Shown here: one piece after another, positions 12,895 to 13,458 of the stretch
How positions within the stretch are numbered: the stretch's first letter is position 1
How the letters are laid out: the number at the start of each line of letters is the position of its first letter
The notes under the pieces: generated by a model
Database searches by the model: none
Told to the model about the DNA's origin: nothing
Seen by the model: only the letters and a program-made list of their open reading frames with translations
DNA from: a virus
Lineage: Duplodnaviria; Heunggongvirae; Uroviricota; Caudoviricetes
Direction: 5' to 3' (one strand)
Length of the DNA stretch: 64,000 nucleotides
Virus record (IMG/VR): IMGVR_UViG_3300029288_000083
Coordinates: 30,130 to 94,129 of that record
Translations under genes and position numbers: made by a program

Positions 12895-13458
12895 TTAAAT
12901 TAAATCACCACATTTTGTGCATCTAGCAATCCAATGATCTTCTGGCTTTGTAAAATATTTATACGTATGTTCTGTTCGTTCACACACTTTTGGTGCAGCA
13001 AATTCTTTAGCTAATTCTGTTATAACTTTGCCTAAAAGATTTTCACCCCAGTTATCAATATTTGCTATTGCATTATTTGCGTCATATCCAATACCCCATA
13101 TTCTATCGAAAGGTGAAGCTTCAACAAATTGCAAATGTTTTCTTTCTATTAAAAATTGTTTCAATTCAGGATCTTGTTCATACCTTGCTTTTAAACCTTC
13201 TTTTACTAACTGGAATTTTACTTTATCCCAAGCAGATTCGTTAAAACCTTTGACTTGTCTTCCAAGATCCTTTTGTTCTCTGGGAACTTTCGTTGCCATT
13301 ATTTTTACAGCAGTTTCTTTATCGTTAAAGAAAAGTGCTTTTTGGTGCATCATATATTGTTCTCCACAATTATATGTAACACCTTTTGCAATGAATTTAG
13401 TTATTGTCCAATTTGCAATCCTGTGTTTCCAAAAGAAAAAATATTTTTCGCTATTCAT
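12895..13458 (-). CDS. NADAR (YbiA/DUF1768) domain protein
   Basis: Pattern '…MMHQKALFFND…K…LGRQV…W…VKFQLVKEGLKARYEQDPELKQFL…LQFVEASPFDRIWGIGYD' matches the NADAR family, including the conserved C-terminal D-x-x-WG-x-G segment. Confidence 0.6.
   Translation of the reverse strand: MNSEKYFFFWKHRIANWTITKFIAKGVTYNCGEQYMMHQKALFFNDKETAVKIMATKVPREQKDLGRQVKGFNESAWDKVKFQLVKEGLKARYEQDPELKQFLIERKHLQFVEASPFDRIWGIGYDANNAIANIDNWGENLLGKVITELAKEFAAPKVCERTEHTYKYFTKPEDHWIARCTKCGDLI

Follow-up and report, generated by a model that had tools for sequence, protein, structure and literature searches.

A NADAR-family protein of an apparent huge tailed phage, a candidate N-glycosidase for ADP-ribosylated nucleobases

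What might a NADAR protein do for a phage whose genome also encodes a PARP? The question is raised by the stretch of viral DNA analyzed here (64,000 nucleotides, referred to as the window). An earlier note on this DNA had recognized a NADAR domain in one of its reading frames and had offered two roles for it, as an eraser or immunity factor for a neighboring PARP or as protection of phage DNA from host DarT-like ADP-ribosylation. The activity of NADAR proteins on guanine-ADP-ribose (G-ADPr) was shown in 2023-24, and a role against DarTG1 in phages in 2025.

The gene occupies positions 12895..13458 on the minus strand and encodes an intact NADAR-family protein. Its open reading frame (ORF) of 187 aa runs uninterrupted from an ATG start to a TAA stop (12895..12897), and the identical protein is carried by 11 public contigs. 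In a Pfam search, the check suggested by the earlier note, the protein matched PF08719 (NADAR / DUF1768) with an E value of 4.6e-42 and 144.5 bits against a cutoff of 35.1 bits, over profile positions 14-161 of 163, and this was its sole Pfam match. It also matched phrog_1017 (E 1.2e-41) and exceeded the cutoff of NCBIfam TIGR02464 (140.9 against 73.7 bits), a domain-level model that covers stand-alone NADARs too. Together with the ORF and the contig copies, these matches define a complete coding sequence, and they bear out the NADAR identity given in the earlier note. The segment PFDRIWGIGYD occurs at residues 116-126 (13081..13113), but the protein does not end there, as the earlier note had it; two further NADAR helices and then a tail of 32 residues follow. 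The identical protein is already in NCBI under the name 'NADAR family protein'. No Shine-Dalgarno-like sequence was visible upstream of the start codon.

The active site appears intact. By HMMER, the protein matched the NADAR of Phytophthora nicotianae var. parasitica (8bau_A) with an E value of 1.7e-14 and Escherichia coli YbiA (2b3w) with an E value of 8.6e-8. In the first of these alignments, whose index offset was +2 throughout, E33, K40 and E113 pair with E43, K50 and E125 of the Phytophthora NADAR, three residues that contact the distal ribose and phosphate of ADP-ribose (PMC11543638). Two catalytic motifs were delimited from the HMMER alignment and 47 homologues, namely, E33-Q-Y-M-M-H-Q-K40 (13339..13362, minus strand) and V112-E113-A-S-P-F-D118-R-I-W-G-I-G124 (13087..13125, minus strand). 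Across the alignment of these 47 homologues, E33, Q34, K40, E113, D118 and W121 were invariant. Mutagenesis of the equivalents of E33, K40, E113 and D118 has shown them to be required for hydrolysis of G-ADPr (PMC11543638), and roles have been described for the residues of the E-x6-K motif (PMC11543638, PMC11825919). The same E-x6-K spacing is found in the AdfN of phage T4, where E36 and K43 correspond to E33 and K40. The absence of catalytic residues known from characterized NADARs would, according to the earlier note, have refuted its reading; E33, K40 and E113 are all kept, and the window protein is very probably an active NADAR enzyme, as judged from alignment and modeling.

The NADAR families differ at one diagnostic position: the 'NADAR' and 'YbiA' families have Glu there, whereas the DarT1-associated antitoxins have Asp and the T4-type phage NADARs have His (PMC11543638, PMC12945103). 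This position is E113 in the window protein (E125 in 8BAU and E167 in SCO5665), which places it, on sequence grounds, in the Glu-type, stand-alone 'NADAR/YbiA' group. Comparison of the subfamily profile with solved structures is consistent with this placement, with 8BAU matched at an E value of 3.7e-27, YbiA at 3e-13 and no DarG1-type structure at an E value of 1 or less. An AlphaFold2 model built from the alignment had a mean pLDDT of 90.4, with block means mostly of 92-98 over residues 1-155. These residues (12994..13458, minus strand) form the predicted catalytic core, which is helical with small beta sheets on its flanks, as in the YbiA-like fold. When the model was searched against the PDB with Foldseek, the only significant matches were 8BAU (the best, TM 0.72, E 9e-11) and YbiA (2B3W).

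The closest functional comparison is with the NADAR of Bas60, which belongs with Bas61 and Bas62 to the phi92-like phages (PMC8594841). The paper that described AdfN validated two more phage NADARs, those of Bas32/33 and of Bas60-62 (PMC11825919), and the latter neutralized DarT1 and restored phage replication (PMC11825919). The Bas60 gene was traced through the NADAR of the congeneric phage muut to PaulScherrer (locus tags bas60_) and EmilieFrey (Bas61). We infer from its annotation and from the description in the paper that bas60_0111 is the AdfN-Bas60 that was tested. Over 170 aligned positions, the window protein and bas60_0111 are 38% identical (E 5e-30), and the two catalytic motifs are kept. 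Like AdfN-Bas60 (from a Justusliebigvirus and annotated as a 'putative YbiA-like N-glycosidase'), it is an orphan phage NADAR with no toxin gene alongside, and the two share the E-x6-K motif, VEASP(Y/F)D, the Glu subtype and the match to PF08719. The Bas60 protein differs in having insertions in its N-terminal half, in lacking the Cys/His tail of the window protein (described below) and in coming from a 150-kb E. coli phage. Furthermore, the anti-DarT1 activity of the Bas60 protein has been measured (PMC11825919), whereas that of the window protein is a prediction.

Two other assignments were considered and rejected. T4 gp30.3 (AdfN-T4, of the 'phage NADAR' family) is likewise an orphan phage enzyme of the NADAR fold, but it matches only PF08010 (Phage_30_3) and not PF08719, carries the diagnostic His of its family and is confined to G-ADPr in what it removes (PMC12945103). 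No similarity between it and the window protein was detectable (BLASTP E 53; hhalign probability 8.7%). With Glu in place of His, no PF08010 match and a nonsignificant pairwise comparison, the window protein is not a T4-type phage NADAR. DarG1 (BC4488 family) shares the superfamily and the chemistry on G-ADPr; it differs in its diagnostic Asp, in a basic extension at the N terminus that binds DNA and in the DarT1 gene next to it, features that are missing here. Since the catalytic Glu of the window protein already lies at residue 33 (the corresponding residue is E88 in the E. coli C7 NADAR [PMC11543638]), there is no space for such an extension, and a scan of the ORFs flanking the gene gave no match to DarT or another ADP-ribosyltransferase (ART) family. 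An identity as a DarG1 antitoxin was discarded on account of the Glu at the Asp position, the absence of a neighboring DarT and the profile search, which returned no DarG1-type structure.

Among the remaining relatives, the best match in both sequence and structure was 8BAU, an ADP-ribose-bound oomycete NADAR that hydrolyzes G-ADPr in vitro (PMC11543638) and has the same catalytic E, K and E. It differs in being eukaryotic and only about 26% identical, with a short N-terminal extension of its own and without the Cys/His tail. E. coli YbiA (2B3W; TIGR02464/COG3236) shares the fold and the Glu-type active site but gave a weaker match than 8BAU. YbiA lies in a LexA-controlled operon, acts on riboflavin intermediates and does not protect cells from DarT1 (PMC11125620). 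This raises the alternative that the phage protein is a metabolic N-glycosidase of the YbiA type, which would destroy reactive intermediates of riboflavin biosynthesis, the function for which TIGR02464 is named. The score above the cutoff of that model ('riboflavin biosynthesis intermediates N-glycosidase'), the active-site type common to YbiA and the frequent annotation of phage homologues as 'GTP cyclohydrolase II' or 'YbiA' all speak for it. However, the profile lies nearer to 8BAU than to YbiA, the ORFs scanned in the window included none for riboflavin synthesis, and a phage has no obvious need for a housekeeping riboflavin activity; moreover, the 'GTP cyclohydrolase II' labels appear to have been carried over from RibA fusion proteins, for which the JGI name 'ribA/ribD-fused uncharacterized protein' may be compared. 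We therefore regard this alternative as highly improbable.

We favor a different reading, to which we assign a probability of about 0.45, a little short of even odds: that the window protein is a counterdefense enzyme against ADP-ribosylation of nucleobases. The established part of this reading consists of the family, the predicted fold, the apparently intact active site, the Glu subtype and the homology to a validated AdfN; the substrate in vivo and the host toxin we infer. The NADAR would be expressed from a long, codirectional block of auxiliary genes of a huge tailed phage. Bases in phage DNA or RNA would be modified by an ADP-ribosyltransferase toxin of the host, one resembling DarT1 or pierisin/ScARP; as a stand-alone Glu-type N-glycosidase, the NADAR would cut the bond between ADP-ribose and nucleobase and so strip ADP-ribose from guanine, and possibly from cytosine, so that replication and expression of the phage could continue. 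Protection of phage nucleic acid from host DarT-like ADP-ribosylation, the second role offered in the earlier note, is plausible, and the AdfN proteins are a published case of it among phage NADARs (PMC11825919). G-ADPr is removed from DNA and RNA by all the NADAR families tested so far, and Glu-type families also remove cytosine-ADP-ribose (C-ADPr) (PMC11125620, PMC11833690, PMC12945103). The gene is separated from its flanking same-strand genes by gaps of 12 nt and 4 nt, consistent with cotranscription in an auxiliary block, and no cognate toxin gene accompanies this phage-borne NADAR. Against counterdefense, neither YbiA nor T4 gp30.3, both of them active in vitro, protected cells from DarT1 when expressed alone (PMC11125620), and an intact active site is therefore no guarantee of an anti-DarT1 role.

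The PARP gene of the window bears on the other role that had been proposed. It lies at 6993..8291 on the minus strand and matches PF00644 (E 6.6e-22) and, over its full length, phrog_23333 (E 6e-57); the protein keeps the H-Y-E triad, has a PARP1-type regulatory domain of helical structure and matches WGR weakly. A gene for a T4 endonuclease-V-like pyrimidine-dimer glycosylase sits beside it (6575..6826, minus strand). The earlier note had placed the NADAR next to the PARP. The two genes are on the same strand, but the PARP lies 4,603 bp downstream of the NADAR with ten called genes between them, so they are not adjacent. As a dedicated eraser or immunity partner, the NADAR would reverse or limit the ADP-ribosylation carried out by the phage's own PARP. 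We searched by tblastn, a method blind to T4-type NADARs and to ART families unrelated to the query, and found homologues of the window PARP within ±10 kb of the NADAR in 0 of 47 viral loci (0 of 33 clusters when grouped at 90% identity) and the window NADAR type within ±10 kb of PARP homologues in 0 of 17 viral loci. The eraser role put forward in the earlier note is thus unsupported by these loci. The window PARP type occurs in 16 GenBank phage records, four of which are also among the NADAR matches, with the two genes 53-169 kb apart.

A macrodomain is the classical eraser of PARP products. What recurs immediately upstream of this PARP type is a hydrolase of the macrodomain kind (PF01661 above cutoff), present in 8 of the 17 PARP loci (L058, L059 and L061-L066), which are probably one related clade. 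In the window, the 179-aa ORF directly upstream of the PARP (8310..8849) was considered as a macrodomain candidate, but no such domain was detectable in it, and a tblastn search for a macrodomain relative in the window found none.

The chemistry of NADARs cuts both ways for the idea that the NADAR is partnered with the PARP. The NADARs assayed were inactive on ADP-ribose linked to 5' and 3' phosphates of DNA and RNA (PMC11833690), the linkage that PARPs make at nucleic acid ends, so phosphate-end ADP-ribosylation would not be reversed. Known pairs of an ART and a NADAR, the toxin-antitoxin pairs DarT1-NADAR and YarT-YbiA (PMC11125620), show that such partnerships exist, but they are adjacent two-gene operons, an arrangement different from that of the window. 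In favor of the idea are the common strand and the distance of less than 5 kb, with no terminator-like site called between the genes on that strand, and the preserved triad and helical domain of the PARP. In addition, Glu-type NADARs remove the C-ADPr made by ScARP, and according to a 2025 preprint, as cited in PMC12945103, PARP1 can ADP-ribosylate cytidine in DNA; the combination of these two activities keeps the idea alive. With ten intervening genes, the absence of pairing in both sets of loci, the wide separation in other phages and the recurrent macrodomain set against it, we consider a dedicated PARP partnership very unlikely. More elaborate, and even less probable, is a version confined to this phage lineage, in which the NADAR and the PARP, whose genes lie in a single codirectional block at a distance of 4.6 kb, would form a writer-eraser pair for base-linked ADP-ribosylation (of C, G or A) and the Cys/His tail would be a zinc hairpin directing the eraser to DNA or RNA. 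As a separate observation, in phage T4 (123454..128765, locus L073) about 3 kb separates gene 30.3, which encodes the NADAR, from alt, which encodes a packaged ADP-ribosyltransferase, a loose ART-NADAR proximity similar to that seen in the window.

The neighborhoods of homologous NADARs would suit another type of substrate. Of 33 dereplicated viral clusters, 19 had NAMPT within 10 kb of the NADAR, 16 had a macro-like protein (median gap 202 bp, without exception on the strand of the NADAR) and 14 had a PRPP-synthetase-like protein; at least one gene of the NAMPT, macro-like, PRPP-synthetase-like or deoxyribosyltransferase-like kinds was present in 22. At locus L017, the NADAR overlaps NAMPT and deoxyribosyltransferase-like neighbors. 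NAD+/ADP-ribose gene islands of large phages are known (PMC9503650) and are reproduced by these counts. The protein might then act not on nucleic acid but on small ADP-ribose-derived molecules, alongside phage NAD+ salvage and macrodomain enzymes; the candidates are immune signals that are variants of cyclic ADP-ribose, by-products of either NAD+ cleavage or RNA repair. Iyer et al. (2022) predicted a small-molecule role for most phage NADARs (PMC9503650). The partners found in 22 of the 33 clusters are the main support for such a role, which they fit at least as well as they fit counterdefense.

The window itself gives a mixed picture on this point. It encodes a NadD-type NMN/NaMN adenylyltransferase (42867..43460, minus strand; TIGR00482, 124 bits against a cutoff of 112 bits), a protein in which an HD phosphohydrolase is fused to a PPAT/NMNAT-like nucleotidyltransferase (10004..11038, minus strand) and an AAA_28 (NadR-kinase-like) protein (17446..18015, minus strand), all of which would suit a small-molecule role. 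However, the typical partners are all missing, as no NAMPT, macro-like, PRPP-synthetase-like or deoxyribosyltransferase-like gene was detectable in the 64 kb. Furthermore, a shared NAD-salvage neighborhood is also expected if the genes make up a single antidefense island, and in the NADAR literature surveyed there was no small-molecule ADP-ribose substrate, the demonstrated ADP-ribose activity being always on base-linked nucleic acid. Taken together, these observations make a small-molecule substrate rather unlikely for the window protein, though more probable than the other alternatives to counterdefense. Band_7 proteins were also observed within 10 kb of NADAR homologues, at 13 of 47 viral loci, and in the window a Band_7/flotillin protein adjoins an NfeD-like membrane protein (31205..32788 and 32838..33386, minus strand).

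The sole unusual feature of the window NADAR is its C-terminal tail. Residues 156-187 (PKVCERTEHTYKYFTKPEDHWIARCTKCGDLI; 12898..12993, minus strand) carry C159, H164, H175, C180 and C183 in the arrangement C-x4-H ... H-x4-C-x2-C. A comparison with the 120 closest homologues, with the best 150 representatives and with the fetched loci revealed no counterpart, and a short-query BLAST search with the tail matched only the phage's own copies. Three tblastn matches that seemed to reach into the tail (L017, Xanthomonas phage Elanor and Bacillus phage C30-3) were dismissed, as their ORFs stop earlier or carry an unrelated extension. In the AlphaFold2 model the tail is a low-confidence beta hairpin (pLDDT 62-66), and in Foldseek it resembled zinc-ribbon ribosomal proteins at nonsignificant scores only. 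That the tail is a small zinc-binding hairpin is a reasonable guess from this model and no more. Such a hairpin might possibly help nucleic acid binding, and it could then be a new way of appending a nucleic-acid-binding element to a NADAR core. Directly upstream of the NADAR gene, a 125-aa ORF without a family match (13471..13848, minus strand) also has a Cys-rich end (CLGCTLEKCDINNC), and small Cys-rich tails may be habitual in this genome.

The claim that this NADAR belongs to a phage found indirect support in the surrounding genome. There are 50 tRNA genes within about 25 kb (16458..41755), all on the minus strand and including seven tRNA-Met(cat) and five tRNA-Leu; three calls have two-base 'anticodons' (24370..24453, 34382..34453 and 39106..39174). 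Genes for GIY-YIG, HNH, DUF559 and endonuclease-I-like proteins are interspersed among the tRNAs. Elsewhere the window matched tail-fiber domains, a phage-type exonuclease and a sigma factor (PHROG) as well as guanylate kinase. The identical NADAR occurs on contigs of 379-425 kb with the same gene order, and the closest relatives of the NADAR and the PARP are on IMG/VR contigs, the longest of 434 kb, and on a 462-kb 'uncultured phage'. The window is best read as part of a huge tailed phage of roughly 400 kb. NCBI attributes the identical NADAR to the metagenome-assembled genome (MAG) of a Candidatus Pacearchaeota archaeon, a label that is probably a binning error in which a huge phage was placed in an archaeal MAG. 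Two minus-strand genes, at 3565..4863 and 47107..47775, give a hint of a host among the Bacteroidota or Fibrobacterota, as the protein of one has a C-terminal sorting domain of the T9SS (Por_Secre_tail) and that of the other a Fibrobacter succinogenes major domain.

The NADAR gene sits in a long run of minus-strand genes. The GC content is uniform at about 33% (0.30-0.35 throughout), and the composition profile around the gene revealed no island. Promoter and terminator scans returned 61 sites against 53.6 ± 8.1 expected and 3 against 4.0, respectively; as these are at background level, they are uninformative on transcription units. A megablast search of positions 11000-15500 against GenBank phages found nothing, which suggests that the phage has no close cultured relative, and a tblastn search of a 1221-aa ORF against phages was likewise empty. 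Several further genes were observed around the NADAR. They make up an RNA/DNA end-repair-like set of five (286..756, 1296..1703, 13850..14341, 11727..12341 and 15282..15824): an HAD phosphatase of the PNKP type, an AAA_33 kinase, a dual-specificity-phosphatase-like protein with the motif HCHAGVSRS, encoded two genes upstream of the NADAR, RNase HII and an ATP-grasp protein of the R2K type. The 5' part of a 139-aa ORF at 16106..16525 (minus strand) overlaps tRNA-Leu(caa) at 16458..16539, so that its annotated N terminus is probably wrong; a variant contig (L002) has different genes at this position, one of them endonuclease-like.

NADAR genes are common in large phages, for which an antidefense role has already been published. 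By tblastn, homologues were found in 718 GenBank phage records, among them phages of Staphylococcus, Escherichia, Listeria, Enterococcus and Bacillus and several phages of 300-600 kb. The window protein is one more divergent example, from an uncultured phage of about 400 kb, and is of little importance alone. Its lineage nevertheless combines a NADAR, a PARP1-like enzyme and NAD-related nucleotidyltransferases in a window from which the usual NAMPT, macro-like and PRPP-synthetase-like partners are missing, and this combination makes it a reasonable candidate in which to ask whether a Glu-type NADAR acts on the products of a bacterial-virus PARP. An exhaustive search of representatives returned 10,020 cluster representatives at an E value of 1e-3 or less, and the best of these include very large tandem-NADAR proteins (P0121, P0124 and P0130), for example, one of 4,240 aa with seven matched stretches.
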